From Octopus vulgaris (taxonomy: Eukaryota): 64,000 bases of DNA. Below are positions 15,940-46,952 of this stretch, one piece after another; within the stretch, counting starts at the first letter, position 1; each line of letters starts with the position of its first letter. The notes below the pieces were generated by a model. That model was not told where the DNA came from. It saw nothing but the letters and a program-made list of their open reading frames with translations, and ran no database searches. The translations under genes were made by a program, and so were the position numbers. The stretch is taken from contig OX597822.1 of the NCBI GenBank assembly GCA_951406725.2, positions 59,086,001-59,150,000 of the forward strand. The letters run 5' to 3'.

Positions 15940-16737
15940 TCAAAATTCATTCCCACTGTATTGTGCGAAAGTACATTTATATGCGTGTAGGCATCTCGAT
16001 ATTCTTTCAGAAATTCTATTAAGTATCTTTTCGTTAGTCCACAGAATAGACAGGGATTCCTCGGATCAGAGACATCATCTCCTGGAAATTGCACTGAATG
16101 GTTTTTCATGTCTAACTATGGACCAATTAATGTAGTATTTCGTATTAGCCTCCTTCAGTCGCCATATAAAGTCTGTCAAAGATGTCGAATGTCTCTTATT
16201 GATTGACCTAAAGCTGGCAACAGGATTACGATAACGATTCTTAAATGAATCAGCTGTCTGCCCAATGTAAACATAGGGCCCTCCCCTTGTGTGCACGGTA
16301 CATTTATATACAAGATTTGTGCTCATACAGAGATTAATCAAAGGACATTTTGATTTATCCCTGCATGAGCATTTATCATTTTTATATGTACATAAAGCAG
16401 TCCTGACTTCATTTACTGGCGTTGTTATCGTGCTAGCTGTACCATGAGTATTTCTACTACTACAAATTGGTCGAAGTTGATGATTATAAATGCTGTTTAC
16501 ATCTCTTTGGTTGGCATTTAGATGTAAATGTTTGCTAGATCCAATAGGTGGGTTATTGAACCGTTGTCGCATTTTGCTATTGTTTATGCGATGCACAAGC
16601 TGCTCCAAATTAGCAGAGCTAGCGTAGGATACCTTCACGGTGTGGTGATTAAAAATAGCATGGTACCGATTGGATTTAGGAAAACACTTGTCCAAAGCAG
16701 CAAAAAAATTTCCAGCGATCCTGGTTGAAACATGCAA
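15940..16737 (-). pseudogene. PLE C-terminal linker/GIY-YIG domain with in-frame TGA at both Cys of the CxxC motif (putative Sec)
   Basis: Reads ...KPFSAISRR*CL*SEESLSILWTNEKILNRISERISRCLH... and matches the recalled family pattern KRCxLCxxEK...LLNKRSE..KCRH. TGAs at 16075-16077 and 16066-16068. Confidence 0.75.
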
Positions 16738-18499
16738 ATTGAAAATTGGGTTGAACCAGAGGACATCCTGATTCCTATAACTGTTGTTAGGCTTATTTGA
16801 TCGAGTGTGTTGTACAGGATTGGAACAAGCAGTTGAATTATTATATCACATGTGTCTATGAGTTTTCTTTTGTAGATCATTAACATGACCAATATCTTCG
16901 AGCCGTATTCTTTATCCGAGTGATTTCTCAAACGGTAACGTTGTGGTGGCATACGATGTGTATCGCAGTTGAAGTAATTACCAGTGTTGCTTAAGCCTGC
17001 ATCTTGTATATATTAAATTCTATCATGGTACCCAGTCTTAGCTAGAGCATCATTATAATAAGATGCATGAGATTCGAAAATTTTACTGGTAGCAGATAAT
17101 CTAGAAAGCCTAGTAGAAATATTCTTAACTAGTTCCCGTATAATCGAGGGTGGATGGTTAGATTCTACGTTAATGTACTTAATATGATCATTCGGTTTAT
17201 GAAATGGTTCAAATAATCTAGAATCAAGACAGAAGGTAGTGTCAAGAAAGTTCACTCTACGATAATCTTTACCTATAGTAATATTTAGTCCTAAATTTTC
17301 GAAAAGTCTAAAGAAATTTTTCCTTTGCCTTTCTAACTGTATTTTACTACTTCTATCTAGAAAATGTAAGGTGTTATCCCTATATATAGACTCCTTGTTA
17401 ATTCAGGAAAGGAAGACTGGATTAATGGAAGGATATATATTCCGACTAGGTCACTGACCTGAGCAGAATCGTGTGAGCCCATTGCTGTATCAAATTCATT
17501 TTCCCTATCTAACCTACTCCATAATTTACCATCAAAATCTACTAAAGTGGCTCGCGCAGCAAGAATAATATCTATTTCGCGTCGGGACAAATCTGAATTT
17601 TTCATGCTAAAAATCAGGGCTTGATTGAGAACGATTGGGTTGATAGTGGCATAGTAGCTCTCTATATCAATTTGCAAGAATTTACAAGTTTTATTAATTT
17701 CAAGAAGCTTGAACCATCGAACCACCTCTTGGGTATCAGACCAGAGGGCTAATCTAATTTTAGACTTAAGGACGAGTATTACCCTGTCAATGATACTTTT
17801 ACTAATAATGCCTATATCGGATTTAGATGGACAAATCAATCTAACTGAGGAGTCGATAAGAAAGTTAGGTTTATGGTCCTTAAACAAAATCCGGGGTTTT
17901 CAGGGGATGTAGGGTTCTGTTCTATCATCAATGGCTAGATCTTTGACGATTTGTAGCCCTGTATTGTTGAATCTCTTTAATACGTCATTACTAGCATGTC
18001 TATATTTGCTCCATAATTCCTTCCTAATCATAGACTTATATAGATCAATATCAACTTGTTTTGTCCGCTGGTACAAATATCCCCGGAGCTTTCTTGAAGT
18101 CGACAAGTAATTTTCTGATTTTCTGCTGATGTATATTACACCGTCCAGGGTACTTCCTGAACTTCACGTTATTGACAATACTATATAATTCTTCTTCAAA
18201 TCTGGTTAGATATTGGTTTGTCGGTGGGTTCCTTCTAGATTTGAACACTTTTTTTAGTAGGTCACTATGTTCAGGTTTGTCGTTAGGTTTACGCTCCTTG
18301 TCGAAAAAGAAAGCTTTCCACCGCATTTTACGCACAAATTGGTTCGTTTTCTCCAAGAGATCCCGTATATATATATATATATATATATATACGAGGTCTG
18401 ATCAATAAGTATCTGTTTTTCAGCCCATGTGACCAATACATTGTTGTTGCTGTTGTTGTTGTTATTATTATTGATATTATTGTTGTTGTGGTCATTGTT

Positions 18500-30249: not shown

Positions 30250-32600
30250 ATCAAATACTTCCCACCTTCAGAATGTCTGAAGTTTGGAGGCGAGAGATCT
30301 GGAATGTTAGTCTTGTCGAGGAAATGCAAAAGCTACATTCTTGTATATGTGGAGGAGTGAAAAAAATGCCACATTTTTTTTTTATTACGTCGGGATGTAT
30401 TCGGGTAATATTCACGCCATGAGACACTAGAGCTGGCCACAATATTCTCATGAGACACAGAAATAGAGAATGATTGGGATAAGTGTTCATACTGAGTAGT
30501 CGATCGAGGAAAGACTATTGTTCAAATGAGGAGTACTTATATCAATAGAATCTTTCCCATCAACAATGAAAAATGCTACAAGTATCTCGGAATTGAGTAA
30601 ATAGAAGTATCTCGGAATTAGGTGAAAAAAATGCTACATGTTTTTTTTTATTACATCGGGATGTATTCGGGTAATATTCACGCCATGAGACACTAGAGCT
30701 GGCCACAATATTCTCACGAGACACTGAAATAGATAATGATTGGGATAAGTGTTCATACTGAGTAGTCGGTCGAGGAAAGACTATTGTTCAAATGAGGCGT
30801 ACTTATATCAATGGAATCTTTCTCATCAGCAATGAAAAATGCTACAAGTATCTCGGAATTGAATATATTGTTGGATACGTTGCTGTGTAAGTGTAGTTAG
30901 AACGACAAAGGAGGACTTCAACAGACTGTCGGCATTTAATAATACTTTTGAAGTGCAGTACAAGTACTAACACTCAAAACACTAGATTAGATACTTAGAG
31001 AGAATCCTCAACTTAGACATTAAGACCAGAATGATGTTAATCATCTTTTGTAATCATATCAACAATAACGTTAACGGGATTTCTCTTAAAGAGAACAATA
31101 GGAGAGATATAAAATGACAAAGACTGTTTGTATTAGCTTTATCACTCAGTATCTATTGTATACTGTGACAGTACCTACTGAGCGGTAAAGGGAGAAATGA
31201 GTAGACCCCATGTATATATTCAGTAGTGAAAAATAACAACTTCAGAGTCGTATAGAACTCCTGAACAGGTTTTCTGAGAATGCAATCACTCCAAAAGATC
31301 CAAGGGTAGCAAGACTAACTACATAAGCAGAGACTTATTCATCAAATGGCAGTAAGTTATGCATTGATTCATATCCCGCAAACTAGAGGATAAAAGTAAC
31401 ATTGACAGGAGGAGTGGTCTCTTTTGTGCTTGTGATACTGAGACAGACACATATTCCATTCCACCAAGTAGTATTCGCTTTCGCTATTCTGAAAAAGGAG
31501 AGACCTGCTAGATTCCTGTTCAATAAAAGGGATATAGATGTTTCTAAATTTCCACTGTGTGATGGTTATATCCATTTGGCTCATACGAGAATGGAAGATA
31601 TCACTTACATGAGTGGTCCTCAACCAGGGTCACTTAGGGATCCATATAAAATTTAGTTGTTAAAAATTATGTCCAATAAATTGGTAATACTTCTACAATA
31701 CACAAAATATTTTAGCAATTATATATACAATTCCTAATAATAATGAATTATAAAAATATAAGATTTTTTAACCCACTTGGGACACCCAGGCCGATTGATC
31801 GGCCCAAGTTATACAAGCTGAAAGGACTTTGAGGCTGATCCATTCTTCACGATGGAACAAATGTTGGGAATGGTTGGTTTTGAAGTGTAATAGCTAATCA
31901 GAGATCGTTCACCAGTAGTTGTATCGCAAAAAAAAAATGGTCCTTTTGGCTACACATACCAAATCATCGTGTGTCTAAAGAGGGTTAAACTTCAAATGTA
32001 TATGGAGGGCCAGTAGATTAAAATAAGAATCAAAGGGGTCCATAGGAAAAAAAGAACAATAGTTGAGAATCTCTGACCTACATCATCGCCTCCCATGCGA
32101 CATGACAGTGTTGCTAAAATTATTTACAGCTATCAGGAGAGATTGATCTGACGGTGATAGAACCAGTCTAGAACCAGAATGAATCCATAACTTGAAAAAT
32201 GAAGAACAGTGATGGGATGTTCCCATAAAAACACCAATCTAATGCGAACACCATCAGGTCGAGGGAATGAAGTCATTCTCTATTGTTAAGTCTAGCTGCC
32301 CAGATGATGTGAGCGATTCGTCTAAAGTTATGAAAAAAGTGATCTGTGGTAAAGTAATGAAGAACTTGCTGTTCTTACCTTTCAGGTGATAGATTTTTCA
32401 TTTGTATCTATCATCATCGGTGCACCAGGTTATGTAATAACAGATTTTCACAAAAGCCTGAAAATGCTGGCGTTTTCCAAGGAAAAAAAAAAAGAAAAGT
32501 AATCACAGTCCTCCAGACCCAATTGATCAGAGAATGGTATAAATCTTCATACAGTGAAGATTTGTAAAACAAAAGGAATCTCTATTTTAGCTCCCTGGAA
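30250..32600 (+). mobile_element. Scattered, heavily decayed non-LTR (RLE-type) remnants with an internal tandem duplication of about 265 bp
   Basis: EKCYKYLGIE motif duplicated (30357-30600 vs 30622-30862). Further remnants such as EVSCP.D and IIIGA.GY near 32290-32440. Confidence 0.5.
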
Positions 32601-38929: not shown

Positions 38930-39416
38930 TATAAGGTATATTTCTAAAATCAGTTCAAATAAAGCTATGTTGGTAAGTAAAAGGTGTTTCTTTTATAATG
39001 GGAGAAATAAACCAGTTAATGATTTAGGCTGTAGGAGTCGGTATAAATGTGAAGGCTTAAAAATATGTTTTAAACGGTTCTCTACGCCTGCACGTCTTAT
39101 GCTGACGACACCTATGAATTTATGTATGTATGTATGTATGTATGTATGTATGTATGTATGTATGTATGTATGTATGTATGTCCGCATGTATGTACGCATG
39201 TATGTATGTATTTATGTATGCCTGTATATACACACATGAGCAACCTAACTAACTGCGTATGAATGGATATATGTATCTATGTTCTACTGTATGCACTTGC
39301 GTAAAATGAAATATGTATTTTATACAATTGTAAATACATACCGGCATCGCTTTTCTATTCAACTCTACGCATGTAGCATGTATGTATGTATGTATGTATG
39401 TATGTATGTATGTATG

Positions 39417-39450
<34 letters not shown>

Positions 39451-39485
39451 TGTATGTATGTATGTATGTATGTATGTATGTATGC

Positions 39486-40760
39486 ATATTTAATATCAGG
39501 CGCCTTGCTGCAAAAACAAAGATATTTACCTCTATCATGAGAGACCTTTTGTATGCTGATGATTGTGAGCTAGTAGTACACTCAGAGATTGATATGCAAC
39601 ACATTTTGAATGCATTCTCTGGTGCTTGCACTGCCTTAGGATTGACAGTCAATCTCAAGAAAACTGTTGTCATGCATCAACCTGCCCCTGGTAAGCAGTA
39701 TAGTGTACCAAATATCTATGTGAATGGTAAACGACTTGATGTAGTCGATCAGTTTGTCTACCTGAGAAGCACAATTAATAGATATGGCAATGTGGATGAT
39801 GAAATTCCATATAGAATTATGAAAGCAAGTGTTGCTTTCGGAAGGCTAGAAAAGATCCTTTGGAGTCGGCGAGACATATGCAGAAAGACAAATATAAAGG
39901 TGTACAAGGCATGTGTGCTCCCTTCTCTTCTCTATGCCTGCGAGACGTAGGTCACATATCGATACCACCTTAAACGACTGGAACGTTTCCATCAGATGTG
40001 CTTCAGACAGATGTATGGCATTAAGTGGAAGGACCGCATCAGTGATCTTGAAATACTCGAAGTCTCTCGGTGTGAAAGTATAGAAGCTCTTGTGTTAAAG
40101 CAAAGGCTCAGATGGAGTGGTCATCTGGTCAGAATGAAGGATTCAAGGATGCCAAAACAACTCTTTTATGGAGAGTTAGCTAAAGGAAAACGACCTCCAC
40201 ATAAACCAAAAAAAGGTATAAGGACGTGCTGAAGGCTTCCTTAAGAGATGCTTGCATCTCTCCTGACACATGAGAAGGCATAGCTATTGATCGTAGCAGG
40301 TGGAGAAGGATTGTGCATGAGGGGACAGCCACGTTTGAGAAATCTCGAGTTGCACATGAGAAAGTAAAGAGGGACGTCAGGAAGGGCATCGCTGTTACAC
40401 CTCCAGAAGGGAAGGGTCTTCCTTTGATTCTGACATGCAATGTCTGTGCAAGACCCTGCCTCAGTAAAGCTGGACTCAAGAGTCATCTTCGTAGTAATAA
40501 AACGAGACAGATGAGTGACAACCTGGCCACTGGTGGTAGTGTAACACACCATACTAATCATATCTGTCGGGCATGTGGAAGAGAGTGTAATTCGGCAGGA
40601 GGACTTAAACGACATGCAAAGGTACATGAAGCCCATTGCCAATTTTGTACAAGACATTGTAGATCTTTAGCTGGGCTAAAAAGTCACATTCGATCACAGC
40701 ACCAGTAACAGTTAAGCTTCGTGCAATGGCCATACTCGATAACGAGGGGGCAGCCATAAT
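39486..40760 (+). mobile_element. 5'-truncated RTE (BovB-like) LINE: C-terminal RT plus three C2H2-like zinc fingers, (TATG)n tail
   Basis: LLYADDCELV, KASVAFGRL, VYKACVLPSLLYACET, RLRWSGHLVRMKDSRMPKQLFYGEL, CNVC..GLKSH, CRAC..GLKRH, CQFC..GLKSH. Contains stops and a frameshift, and is embedded in (TATG)n on both sides. Confidence 0.93.
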
Positions 40761-41068: not shown

Positions 41069-41195
41069 TATACGACGAGTTTCTTTCATTTTTCACCTAC
41101 CAAATCCAATCACAAGATTATTGTCCAACGTACTACGCAGTGGAAACGAACCCGAAAGCATGTGACCGAGAAAAAAACTTCTTACCATACACAGG
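40806..41195 (-). mobile_element. Family-K SINE, diverged
   Basis: Arms recognisable around (CA)n. Confidence 0.65.
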
Positions 41196-42830: not shown

Positions 42831-43391
42831 CACGTCCTATAACTGTCTGTCTCTCTACTTCTGTAGGGCCTTCCCTGTTGCTGTTACGTCAAAATTTATA
42901 AATCTGGTACATTGAAATAATTTTCCGCATTAAATCCGATTTTGTTATATATTTGTTTCAGAAAAATTGCAGAAAAATGTTACCCAGGTTTAAAACTTAA
43001 TCGGTTTTACCTAATCAGAAAACAGGATTTTGAAACTGGCATTTTTTTACATGATAGCTGTCTATCACAAAATAAAAACAAAATCAATACGAGCAGGAAT
43101 TTTTAATTAAACAAACGAAAGTAAAGCATTACGACGACTAAAGTTGTAAGAACTGAAGTTTTAATGAGTTTTAATGAATAAAGTCATGTGAAACGGCCGA
43201 ACAGACATATGAATAATTTAAAACGGAAAAAAATCCCCAACTAAGTTTTTTTTGCAAAAAAACTACACAAATATGTCCTGATCAAGAGGCCTATCTGTCG
43301 GGGAAGGCATGGTTTGACATGGAATAAGCAAAAATTTATATAAGACAGTCTATTGTAAAAGTTTCCCGGCAACGACGGGCTATGCAGCTAG
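42184..43391 (+). mobile_element. Second Helitron immediately in tandem
   Basis: TC start with a 5' region similar to the 28333 copy; 3' CCCGGCAACGACGGG...CTAG|T. Confidence 0.7.
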
Positions 43392-43417
43392 TATATACAT
43401 ATATACCTATATATATA

Positions 43418-43462
<45 letters not shown>

Positions 43463-43772
43463 ATAATAGTTATCGCCATACTACCCTTGTTCGAAGGTTA
43501 TATGGATACAGTTTGTGTATCAAATAGCTAACTTAAGGCGATGGCCTCATGGAGCTAATAAGCGGACAGCTTTTTTCTTATTTTTATAAGAATGCCATAT
43601 TAGTATGGCGATAACTATTATTTTCCGGGAACGCTGCCGCTGTTCTCTTTTAGAGAGACTTAGTTATTTTAATATTTCTATTATTGAAAACAAGTGGATG
43701 TATTCCACCGAAACTAGGTAAATAAAACCATCGAACAGAGATTGTCGGAAGCGACACCTACTGGCTGGCTAC

Positions 43773-43814
43773 GCTGCATTGAAAAGGGGCAATACCCCGA
43801 AACGCGTCTGTAGC
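43773..43814 (+). ncRNA. Type I hammerhead ribozyme, array copy 1 (U3-A8 core variant)
   Basis: GCTGCA-TTGAAAA-GGGG-CAATA-CCCC-GAAA-CGCG-TC-TGTAGC: 6-bp stem I, 4-bp stem II, palindromic minimal stem III (ACGCGT), GUC cleavage triplet ending at 43808. Confidence 0.85.
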
Positions 43815-44134
43815 TGCCGGTCAAGTAGTGTGGAGCGACTGACTTCCCTTGTTCGAAGGTTATATGGATACAGTTTGTGTATCAAATAGCTAACTTAAGG
43901 CGATGGCCTCATGGAGCTAATAAGCGGACAGCTTTTTTCTTATTTTTATAAGAATGCCATATTAGTATGGCGATAACTATTATTTTCCGGGAACGCTGCC
44001 GCTGTTCTCTTTTAGAGAGACTTAGTTATTTTAATATTTCTATTATTGAAAACAAGTGGATGTATTCCACCGAAACTAGGTAAATAAAACCATCGAACAG
44101 AGATTGTCGGAAGCGACACCTACTGGCTGGCTAC

Positions 44135-44176
44135 GCTGCATTGAAAAGGGGCAATACCCCGAAACGCGTCTGTAGC
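44135..44176 (+). ncRNA. Type I hammerhead ribozyme, array copy 2
   Basis: Identical motif 362 bp downstream of copy 1. Confidence 0.85.
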
Positions 44177-44496
44177 TGCCGGTCAAGTAGTGTGGAGCGA
44201 CTGACCTCCCTTGTTCGAAGGTTATATGGATACAGTTTGTGTATCAAATAGCTAACTTAAGGCGATGGCCTCATGGAGCTAATAAGCGGACAGCTTTTTT
44301 CTTATTTTTATAAGAATGCCATATTAGTATGGCGATAACTATTATTTTCCGGGAACGCTGCCGCTGTTCTCTTTTAGAGAGACTTAGTTATTTTAATATT
44401 TCTATTATTGAAAACAAGTGGATGTATTCCACCGAAACTAGGTAAATAAAACCATCGAACAGAGATTGTCGGAAGCGACACCTACTGGCTGGCTAC

Positions 44497-44538
44497 GCTG
44501 CATTGAAAAGGGGCAATACCCCGAAACGCGTCTGTAGC
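44497..44538 (+). ncRNA. Type I hammerhead ribozyme, array copy 3
   Basis: Identical motif 724 bp downstream of copy 1. Confidence 0.85.
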
Positions 44539-44891
44539 TGCCGGTCAAGTAGTGTGGAGCGACTGACCTCCCTTGTTCGAAGGTTATATGGATACAGTTT
44601 GTGTATCAAATAGCTAACTTAAGGCGATGGCCTCATGGAGCTAATAAGCGGACAGCTTTTTTCTTATTTTTATAAGAATGCCATATTAGTATGGCGATAA
44701 CTATTATTTTCCGGGAACGCTGCCGCTGTTCTCTTTTAGAGAGACTTAGTTATTTTAATATTTCTATATATATATGTATGTATATATATGTATAATATAT
44801 ATATGTATGTATATATGTCTGTATACATATATATATGTGTATATATATGTATATATATATGTATATATATATTATATATATGTATATATAC

Positions 44892-45010: not shown

Positions 45011-45265
45011 ATATATAATTGACAACCAAGTGTGGTGTCCTATTGACAGTGCTGTTGACGTTTATTGCCCCAGGAAGCCATCTCCTTCAGCTGGCTAACG
45101 ACACACATTTTGTGTCCGATTAGTATTTGCGAGGGGTGGTCATCGCTCCCATCTCTAGCCTTAATCGGACACAGAATGTGTGTCGTTAGCCAGCTGGAGG
45201 GAGTGTGTTCCTGGGGTTATAAACGTCAGTAGCACTGTCCTGTATAGGACGCCACACTTGATTGG

Positions 45266-45319: not shown

Positions 45320-45437
45320 AGGGTAGTTTTTTCGTGGGCGAAGATCATGAGGAAGACCTGCACACTCTCAAGTGGAAATGTAAACCAATCCATGACGCTG
45401 CATAGCCTCACTTCTTGCCTTTGCTTAGAAGTTTTAA

Positions 45438-45600
45438 ACGACGGGCTTCTTTCAGTTTCCGTCTACCAAATCCACTCACAAGGCTTTGATCGGCCCGAGG
45501 CTATAGTAGAAGACACTTGCCCAAGGTACTACGCAGTGGGACTGAACCCAGGACCATGTGGTTGGTAAGCAAGCTACTTACCACACAGTCGCTTCTACGC
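45438..45600 (-). mobile_element. Family-K SINE 5' arm
   Basis: ACGACGGGCTTCTTTCAGTTTCCGTCTACC...CTTACCACACAG. Confidence 0.8.
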
Positions 45601-46952
45601 CTTTTTGCATACGCATAAATCTTATTCTATACTCTACCCATTCCGAGTTACTAATTTATTCGAATGAGATGGAACGATAGACGTTTGAATTATTCTTTAT
45701 GAGGTTCCATGAGTTTGCTATAATTGATGTTGCTATGTTTTATTGTGGAACCGATGCGTGATGCCGTCTGCTTGTCGACTCTCCTATTCAGCAAAATAAT
45801 AAAGGTAAAAAAAGCATGCTATTTTACCCAATTCACTCGAATAATCCATAGCAGTAGTGGCGGTGTTACGATCGCCAACAGTGACAACTTTGCCAGTCAT
45901 TAGTGACAGTGATGTTGAAGTAGATGGCGGCGACGATGGCATGAGTAAAAGCTTGGCAGTTTTGTACAGTTTTCGGTACTATATTCGTTTACGGAATTCT
46001 ACGTACAGTGGTTTGGTCTCAGTAAAGACTATAATAGAAGACAAGTGCTCAAGATGCTGCGCATTGGGAAAGAACCCAACTAGAAGCCATAAGGTTGCAA
46101 AATAAACTCCTTCACCACGTAGTCATATCCGCAGCCAGTATTTAAACAACACCGAACAACTCCGAACAACTCCGAACAGCTCGAAACATTCTATATGAAT
46201 GGATGTTCCTCTCGTAAGTTAAGCAAATTTTGTTGCTTTCTCACTCATAGAACCTCTTCCTCTTCCCCTCCAAAACAGCCGCTCAAATGAGAAAAACCAA
46301 TATATCGACTTTATATTTGTTTCTATAGCAATTGGTTTTACGTTGCTAGATTTCCATAGAAACGTCTGTTCAGACAGGGCAATCGCGTAATTTTTTTTTT
46401 TTAAAGTTAGGCAGAATTGGGACAGTACTCATGACCTTTGCAGATTAGTGAGGCTGATGCTACTGATGCCGAGTGTGAACAGCTGCAGTTTAATGCTTGC
46501 AGGAAAAAACGTGACTTAGTGGGGCTCTGGTAGGAATTACTGAAATAAAGGGAGGTTTACTAAAGCATACAAAATTGTGAGTTCGAATCGACTGAAACGA
46601 AATAGGGAAAATAAGGTAAACTTGTTTACAATATTTTCTAACTGTGGGAATTTACGAGATCACTTAGCCTGCTAGAAATAGTTGTCGATAATCCCTCAAA
46701 TTACATCCTGCCCTCTTAATTAGGAGGTACATTAGACAATATGGTCCTAGATCTGATAGTTTCAGTTGCCATACCCTTCAAGCAGATCTCGGATTAAACA
46801 ACAATAACAACATACAAACAAACATGCAAACAACAGTCTTATCTTTGTCTTCTACAATAATACTAACAAAGGAACCTAAGTCTTGTGTGTGAAACTGTCG
46901 GCGGAATCTATGTTGAAGCCCATTTGGGTGGGTTGTAACAACTGCTATTGTG

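Follow-up and report, generated by a model that had tools for sequence, protein, structure and literature searches.

Non-LTR retrozymes of metazoans are known from coral, mussel, and axolotl, with molluscan units of 350 to 390 bp, and their mobilization by Penelope-like elements (PLEs) has already been published as a hypothesis (PMC7229834). As described there, they are tandems of 150- to 450-bp units with a GC content under 50% and one canonical type I hammerhead ribozyme per unit. The circular form is predicted to be strongly self-paired with the ribozyme free to fold, target duplications are long (>4 bp), and the elements coexist with PLEs. All of these features recur in the family reported here. 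It differs in that a U3-A8 core is fixed throughout the family and in its two-armed insertions with fixed ends, termed A and B, for which the accessible text of PMC7229834 gave us no counterpart; moreover, expression and circles have been shown for the described retrozymes, whereas in this family transcription and circles are proposed from DNA sequence. Vertebrate retrozymes have been argued to be non-autonomous PLE derivatives in both origin and mobilization (bioRxiv 10.64898/2026.07.22.740005). The case made in that preprint, as far as its accessible text goes, is co-occurrence and pLTR homology, whereas ours is made from insertion footprints, with pLTR homology not demonstrable.

PLE insertions are marked by partial tandems, an inverted truncated copy, a 30- to 40-bp tail at one end, and (TA)n targets (PMC8557442, PMC3846280), and the presence of the tail on just one of two inverted pLTRs has already been stated descriptively (PMC3846280). 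In vitro, the anole Poseidon protein, a predicted dimer, initiates cDNA synthesis internally, at two neighboring sites on either side of the tail, and both strands are extended; the ribozyme of this PLE is dispensable, and unprocessed RNA is the main substrate (PMC11167929). The insertions described here share with these systems the partial tandems, the inverted truncated copy, the one-end tail, the (TA)n or AT-rich targets, and the two adjacent starts of reverse transcription. Unlike PLE insertions, they contain no coding frame, their tail is about 60 nt rather than 30 to 40, and the repeat unit is the whole element, with arms several turns long. Further, the start site is alike on both strands for the anole protein (PMC11167929), whereas in the present insertions a site is almost never used by both arms.

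A literature search that covered few subscription papers found no published cephalopod retrozyme and no exclusive use of two sites by the arms of an insertion. Neither the class of element nor the U3-A8 pair is new, and the link to PLEs had been put forward as a hypothesis. Taken by itself, the array is a retrozyme; novelty is confined to the anatomy of the insertions with its two-site (A+B) rule, and the interest lies in the insertion footprints of the family.

The array, its family, and its ribozyme

The array lies in a 64-kb window, the whole stretch of DNA that was analyzed. A preliminary description of this window had reported about 3.5 nearly identical 362-bp units with a difference near 43844, and both TRF and unit-by-unit comparison agree. 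TRF detected a 362-bp period at 43484 to 44767 (3.5 copies, 99% matches). As assembled, the head-to-tail array comprises 3.55 units of 362 bp with a GC content of 41%. Unit-by-unit comparison placed the sole difference between units at unit position 361 (window position 43844, T versus C); units 2 and 3 and partial unit 4 are identical. The features of the locus are as follows.

43392 to 43458, no strand: left (TA)n target microsatellite (TRF)
43459 to 43483, minus strand: short second arm, unit positions 118 to 142, outer end at site A (BLAST of the unit; A/B classes)
43484 to 44767, plus strand: long arm, 3.55 turns of the 362-nt unit, outer end at site B, unit position 198 (TRF, unit comparison)
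43755 to 43832, plus strand: predicted type I hammerhead, copy 1, with U3 at 43779 and predicted cleavage after C17 at 43808 (fold)
43809 to 44170, plus strand: predicted monomer 1, 362 nt, 41% GC (prediction only)
43979 to 43988, plus strand: site A in unit 2, unit positions 134 to 143 (outer-end histogram, pairing probabilities)
44041 to 44046, plus strand: site B in unit 2, unit positions 196 to 201 (outer-end histogram, pairing probabilities)
44117 to 44194, plus strand: predicted type I hammerhead, copy 2, predicted cleavage after 44170 (unit comparison, positions)
44171 to 44532, plus strand: predicted monomer 2 (prediction)
44479 to 44556, plus strand: predicted type I hammerhead, copy 3, predicted cleavage after 44532 (unit comparison, positions)
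44708 to 44767, plus strand: "tail" of about 60 nt between sites A and B, in one arm only (arm anatomy; PLE tail as in PMC8557442, PMC3846280, PMC11167929)
44768 to 44961, no strand: right (TA)n target microsatellite (TRF)

Further copies of site A are at 43617, 44341, and 44703, and of site B at 43679 and 44403. Positions 43459 to 43483 are the reverse complement of unit positions 118 to 142, and both ends of the element lie in (TA)n. In the window, an A arm of 25 nt is joined to a B arm of 3.55 turns, the inner end of the long arm falling at unit position 1, within a stop region that recurs in the family. The 25-bp segment had been read as an inverted 5' piece in (TA)n; its inversion and its flank stand, but it is the 3' end of a second arm that was, in our reading, separately primed. 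The unit is non-coding (longest ATG frame, 38 aa) and without LTRs. No frame with reverse transcriptase (RT) plus GIY-YIG was found within the array, no tRNA gene near it (ARAGORN), and no evident host gene among the long frames of the window.

Other repeats occur in the window. A GC-rich hairpin followed by CTAG at 43366 to 43391, immediately left of the (TA)n tract, resembles a Helitron 3' end. At 45045 to 45239 there is a MITE-like inverted repeat with 78-nt arms that are 86% complementary and 39 nt apart. Short dispersed repeat copies at 41069 to 41191, 45435 to 45587, and 46026 to 46078, which we take to be SINE-like, are also common in the loci fetched. Broken frames at 16075 to 17899 and 39249 to 40708 resemble, by eye from their translations, a GIY-YIG/RT Penelope-like element and a LINE, and a 266-bp tandem occupies 30357 to 30862 (1.9 copies, 95%; TRF).

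Counting genomic copies had been suggested as a check, and an exact core pattern gave 1,125 matches in the 2.8-Gb genome against 0 for the reversed control; the pattern permitted A or G at position 8, which was A in all 100 matches listed. Chromosome C1 holds 82 cores in 55 insertions, a ratio from which we estimate about 750 insertions in the genome. A more divergent subfamily adds 255 pattern matches. Among the best 40 of 1,076 BLAST candidates scored, copies were 99 to 100% identical across many chromosomes, and the subfamilies form a ladder of about 100%, 96 to 98%, and 84 to 87% identity, plus one at about 80%. Only 94 single-turn variants were found in 49,138 aligned bases from 50 young loci; the burst is therefore recent. 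For insertion anatomy we studied 100 insertions: the 40 best BLAST hits, after removal of six redundant views, and 60 consecutive loci from the listed core matches along C1 and the start of C2. By the structural features examined (tandem 362-bp units, 41% GC, a hammerhead per unit, dispersed copies, and 9- to 14-nt target duplications), the array belongs to a young non-LTR retrozyme family with predicted ribozyme function, the class proposed at the outset. The recent reverse-transcription origin proposed with it is likewise supported.

The preliminary description was also right that each full unit carries one type I hammerhead, with cores at 43779 to 43808, 44141 to 44170, and 44503 to 44532, and that helix III is a palindrome (ACGCGU). 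The 78-nt motif has a predicted folding energy of -34.6 kcal/mol (z -4.0), a value reached by 0 of 200 shuffles. Helix I spans 6 bp and leads through a UAC/U internal loop into a long distal stem; helix II consists of 4 G-C pairs capped by a CAAUA loop. The core reads UUGAAAA with a U3-A8 pair, GAAA and GUC are present, and the 3' strand reads GAAACGCGUC. We take the UAC bulge and the CAAUA loop to resemble the Schistosoma motif, with a putative tertiary contact between loops 1 and 2. Folded as a circle, the monomer has a predicted energy of -122.5 kcal/mol (z -6.8, 60 shuffles) and keeps hammerhead helices I and II with pair probabilities of 0.94 to 1.0. No hammerhead core was found on the minus strand. 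The positions proposed for cleavage (after 43808, 44170, and 44532) hold, but three sites delimit two full monomers.

As modeled, the ribozyme is a canonical type I hammerhead and not the minimal type of PLEs, as had been supposed, because helices I (6 bp) and II (4 bp) have canonical sizes and no extra base precedes helix II. The minimal type is defined by a long helix II (7 to 8 bp), a short helix I, and an extra base before helix II; the canonical metazoan type is defined in the same source, and the helix sizes here fit it (PMC4209133). The minimal hammerheads of the Schistosoma PLE Cercyon share the U3-A8 pair and the palindromic helix III but combine a long helix II with a short helix I and lie in pLTRs, in contrast to the 6- and 4-bp helices and bulged helix I found here (PMC4209133). 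Helix III resembles the axolotl motif of one base pair and a palindromic tetraloop, which works as a dimer (PMC7229834). The U3-A8 pair is a known natural covariation (PMC3088659, PMC4209133) that is present in Schistosoma PLEs (PMC4209133) and has been reported active in vitro (PMC3088659). Covariance models had been suggested as a further check, and Rfam detected no hammerhead: there was no match at gathering thresholds and only chance matches at E ≤ 10. A high-copy hammerhead family thus escapes Rfam.

Insertion anatomy and the A+B rule

Two divergent arms were found in 68 of the 100 insertions and one arm in 28; four were complex. Outer ends cluster at two sites about 60 nt apart, A (unit positions 134 to 143, mode 138) and B (196 to 204, mode 201). 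Both sites read CUAUUAU; in the predicted fold, A is mostly unpaired and B lies at a hairpin loop. An A end was paired with a B end in 57 of the two-arm insertions, a B end with a B end in one (L010), and an A end with an A end in none, while 10 of the 68 had one end outside both windows. The A+B combination therefore accounts for 57/58 classifiable two-arm insertions (binomial p 2e-16), with the caveat that the A and B windows were drawn after the data had been seen. It accounts for all 31 classifiable cases of the consecutive set (60 loci, C1 to C2), and the older subfamily mostly obeys the same rule, with one B+B insertion (L146) among 12 loci.

The outer flanks were TA-rich at 110/136 arm ends of two-arm insertions. 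Target duplications of 9 to 14 nt overlapping the element ends occurred in 10 of 15 informative insertions, which include one (L101) whose second end was placed by hand, versus 16 of 210 mismatched controls. At the junction, the arms overlap by 2 to 12 nt in 40/68 insertions; they are mostly joined by short microhomology. Their lengths are negatively correlated (rho -0.34), which may reflect the choice of loci with a full unit and is therefore given no weight. In L1 twin priming, both target strands prime and the inversion is joined by microhomology. There the second primer lies at variable internal sites of a linear RNA, whereas in this family the two sites are fixed and each product can run beyond one template length.

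Judged by their sequence variants, both arms of an insertion come from one subfamily. At diagnostic variants, the two arms agreed 316 times and disagreed 21 times across 38 insertions, whereas the fraction for shuffled pairs averaged 0.21 and peaked at 0.50; this argument is weakened because the subfamilies may have been active at different times.

Some loci show additional joins. The segments L037:417-2095 and L086:1-1679, on different chromosomes, share 1.7 kb at 99.7%, in which the RT-coding 3' part of a LINE is joined directly to the retrozyme near unit position 256; this is possibly a LINE-retrozyme chimera or a target-specific insertion. At L025:2445-2720, a second arm passes into a different sequence whose hammerhead-like core reads CTGATGA and which may be the pLTR of a third PLE family.

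Candidate PLE partners

Mobilization by PLEs had been part of the initial reading, and the footprints agree with it, since partial tandems, an inverted truncated copy, a tail at one end, and a (TA)n target are all found in the family. Among the 150 of 6,136 endonuclease candidates that were scored, we found at least two young PLE families in the same genome with a C-terminal GIY-YIG domain and a CX2-5CxxC linker, which marks Neptune and Nematis PLEs (PMC8557442). On these motifs, PLE-1 and PLE-2 would be of Neptune/Nematis type and are two candidate helper families.

PLE-1 (L122:430-5672, L125:768-2204) is young and about 4.8 kb long, with an intact 781-aa frame (RT plus C-terminal GIY-YIG) and an upstream frame of 479 aa that has no Pfam match over the cutoff. 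It sits in (TA)n and has two fixed pLTR ends about 40 nt apart. Both ends are used in 5/5 two-ended copies, and the proximal end in 17/18 single-ended copies of one sample; the distal end carries CTATTAT. Older PLE-1 copies contain a minimal-hammerhead motif with U3-A8, TTGATAA...GAAACATGT, whose core and helix III agree with those of the most divergent retrozyme subfamily. PLE-2 (L191) has a 1,116-aa frame and, in the loci examined, one fixed end and no clear two-site use. Its pLTRs (L191:2560-2712 and many loci) contain a minimal-hammerhead-like motif, by eye C3-G8 with U at position 6. Diverged relatives of the PLE-2 3' end were present in over 20 fetched loci, most ending in (TA)n.

BLAST detected no nucleotide homology between the retrozyme unit and 35 PLE loci. 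Alignment of the unit to the PLE-1 3' end was not significant (125/500 shuffles reach the score), and that of the PLE-2 3' end to the A-B region was marginal (22/500) and failed with older subfamily copies (64 and 258 of 500). What the unit has in common with these PLEs is limited to short motifs. A physical link is found at L058:32-1207, where the 3' part of PLE-2, running from the endonuclease through to the fixed end, and a retrozyme arm form a sense-oriented fusion that faces an ordinary A arm; this is the only piece of PLE-1 or PLE-2 adjoining an arm among the 100 loci. The join resembles the product of a template switch involving PLE RNA and retrozyme RNA, and it would point to PLE-2 rather than PLE-1 and to a second RNA in the reaction. 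At another locus (L023:1896-2420), a PLE RT fragment, presumably Naiad-like by its motifs, borders, in matching orientation, the inner end of a lone retrozyme arm.

Template and mechanism

We consider it probable, with good confidence, that a Penelope-like RT-endonuclease acts in trans on this young, non-autonomous, non-LTR retrozyme family and copies it in a twin-primed, multi-turn reaction, probably on a circle; cleavage, circle, and helper are parts that we infer. The arrays would be transcribed, and by analogy with related retrozymes (PMC7229834) the tandem hammerheads would cleave, probably as dimers via the palindromic helix III, leaving a 362-nt monomer to be ligated into a circle. A PLE endonuclease would then cut AT-rich DNA, mostly (TA)n, with a stagger of about 10 to 12 nt; the target preference and the duplications are observed. 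Each cut end would prime reverse transcription at one CUAUUAU site, one site per strand about 60 nt apart, to give the end positions and the A+B exclusivity seen in the insertions. Each polymerase would run for the 0.07 to 5.5 turns recorded in the arms, seldom stopping at the ribozyme site, and the two cDNA 3' ends would be joined by the few bases of microhomology found at the junctions. In a more specific and tentative form, which we hold to be quite possible, a single PLE dimer on one circular ribozyme RNA primes both target strands at the two fixed sites, and the two reverse transcriptases pursue one another around the RNA through strand displacement.

Arm lengths span 0.07 to 5.5 turns. 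Among the 150 arms that end at A or B, 95 extend to one turn, 30 to two, 8 to three, 3 to four, and 2 to five; the way loci were selected makes long arms too frequent in this sample, and the consecutive set gave 51, 11, 2, 1, and 1 of 98. The cleavage site is crossed at least once by 129/164 arms. Only 9/207 passes stop within 10 nt of it, and a pile-up of arm ends there is weak at most (9/164, uncorrected p 0.04). The template must therefore be covalently continuous at this position, as a ligated circle or an uncut multimer. Given copying by a PLE, we regard the ligated circle as rather likely and the uncut multimer as a lesser possibility.

The same two-site priming by a PLE on a linear uncut multimeric transcript of a master array, with no circle needed, is as a full account somewhat unlikely. 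Possible sources are at hand in arrays as long as 5.5 units, and joined ends exist as DNA, as contigs of 4/4 runs attest, among them a very large variant-rich run. Such a master would have to consist of identical units over at least 5.5 turns and escape a well-formed hammerhead. Furthermore, a stop region at unit positions 357 to 14, inside a predicted long-range helix, acts on every pass (24/239 overall; 7/134, 10/74, 3/20, 2/7, 1/3, and 1/1 by pass); these stops behave like a periodic pause, which fits better than one transcript 5' end. Single-turn variants seldom recur between loci (87 distinct of 94), and a few rare variants span all turns and both arms: in single older insertions, nine are common to all covering turns, six of them across both arms. 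The young subfamily cannot separate circle from multimer because it has 0 private shared variants.

Sequencing runs bear on the joint itself. The unit stretch occurs in 20 listed runs from 11 studies and 7 organism codes, none listed as RNA, and the head-to-tail joint was present in contigs of 4/4 runs from 4 studies. One 392-nt contig (362 + 30) of run X3 closes on itself with no differences, and a 379-nt contig of run X1 covers the unit without differences; run X15 yielded 4,227 contigs. These contigs are no evidence for or against an RNA circle because the RNA label was guessed and a DNA tandem would produce an identical joint. Immediately downstream of the cleavage site are words that by eye resemble Pol III A and B boxes, but U-runs of 4 to 6 in the unit argue against full-length Pol III transcripts.

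It is less likely still that the hammerhead is a weak or dead passenger, with the PLE protein copying the RNA for its A/B region and the ribozyme without a role. Helix III has just 1 to 2 bp, and Rfam finds no match. Eight of nine predicted Xenopus retrozyme dimers did not cleave (10.64898/2026.07.22.740005), and anole PLE insertion was unaffected by ribozyme mutants (PMC11167929); the uncleaved dimers, and the dispensable ribozyme and unprocessed substrate of the anole PLE, count against our preferred explanation as well. Set against a passenger are the reported in vitro activity of U3-A8 (PMC3088659) and the sparing of the core across subfamilies up to about 20% apart, although the search patterns fixed part of that core. 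Between subfamilies, N7 varies among A, C, and U with the core kept, the 10.1-11.1 closing pair of helix II changes from G-C to A-U, and helix III changes from ACGCGU to ACAUGU and stays palindromic. The helix I pair 293-328 occurs in three standard forms, and two distal pairs are altered on both sides. Because these changes keep core and pairing, within what the patterns left free, they argue for selection on the ribozyme. The preliminary description had seen selection in the U3-A8 pair; the structure-sparing changes support selection on the ribozyme, but the pair itself was already known (PMC3088659, PMC4209133). Over seven copies, the predicted circle fold shows 8 compensatory, 15 consistent, and 37 breaking changes and 56 invariant pairs, with single-copy decay included; outside the hammerhead it is only partly conserved. 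The best-conserved stretch of the unit is positions 105 to 240 (0.88 to 0.93 versus 0.69 to 0.86 elsewhere).

Fold-back self-priming of one cDNA at a hairpin, which would yield an inverted arm with no second primer, is very improbable. Self-priming has been proposed for PLEs (PMC3846280), and a few junctions at the hairpin of unit positions 2 to 14 are nearly symmetric (L026, L033, L038). Inner ends, however, are no closer than random (within 30 nt, 11/68 versus 11.5 expected; within 15 nt, 6 versus 5.8), and nothing in fold-back would make the second arm end at the site unused by the first. As a general route of inversion it is rejected because the inner ends are not symmetric. Local amplification of a solo pLTR-derived monomer as a minisatellite by unequal crossing-over, a process discussed in 10.64898/2026.07.22.740005, or an assembly artifact would suit the near identity of units within an array but is highly improbable given that the arrays are dispersed, that their partial units terminate at two fixed positions, that their inverted arms belong to the same subfamily, that target duplications flank them, and that the head-to-tail joint occurs in runs from four studies.

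What is at stake is how retrozymes are mobilized, whether circles serve as templates, and where PLE tails and inversions come from (PMC7229834, PMC8557442, PMC11167929). With hundreds of very young insertions, a quantitative A+B rule, a substrate of 362 nt, and intact candidate enzymes encoded in one genome with it, the family makes the mechanism testable in vitro. If the coordinated reaction on a circle is correct, the PLE "tail" and inverted pLTR would be a general footprint of coordinated two-site priming, and the arrays would be a direct genomic record of rolling-circle copying of circRNA into DNA in an animal.
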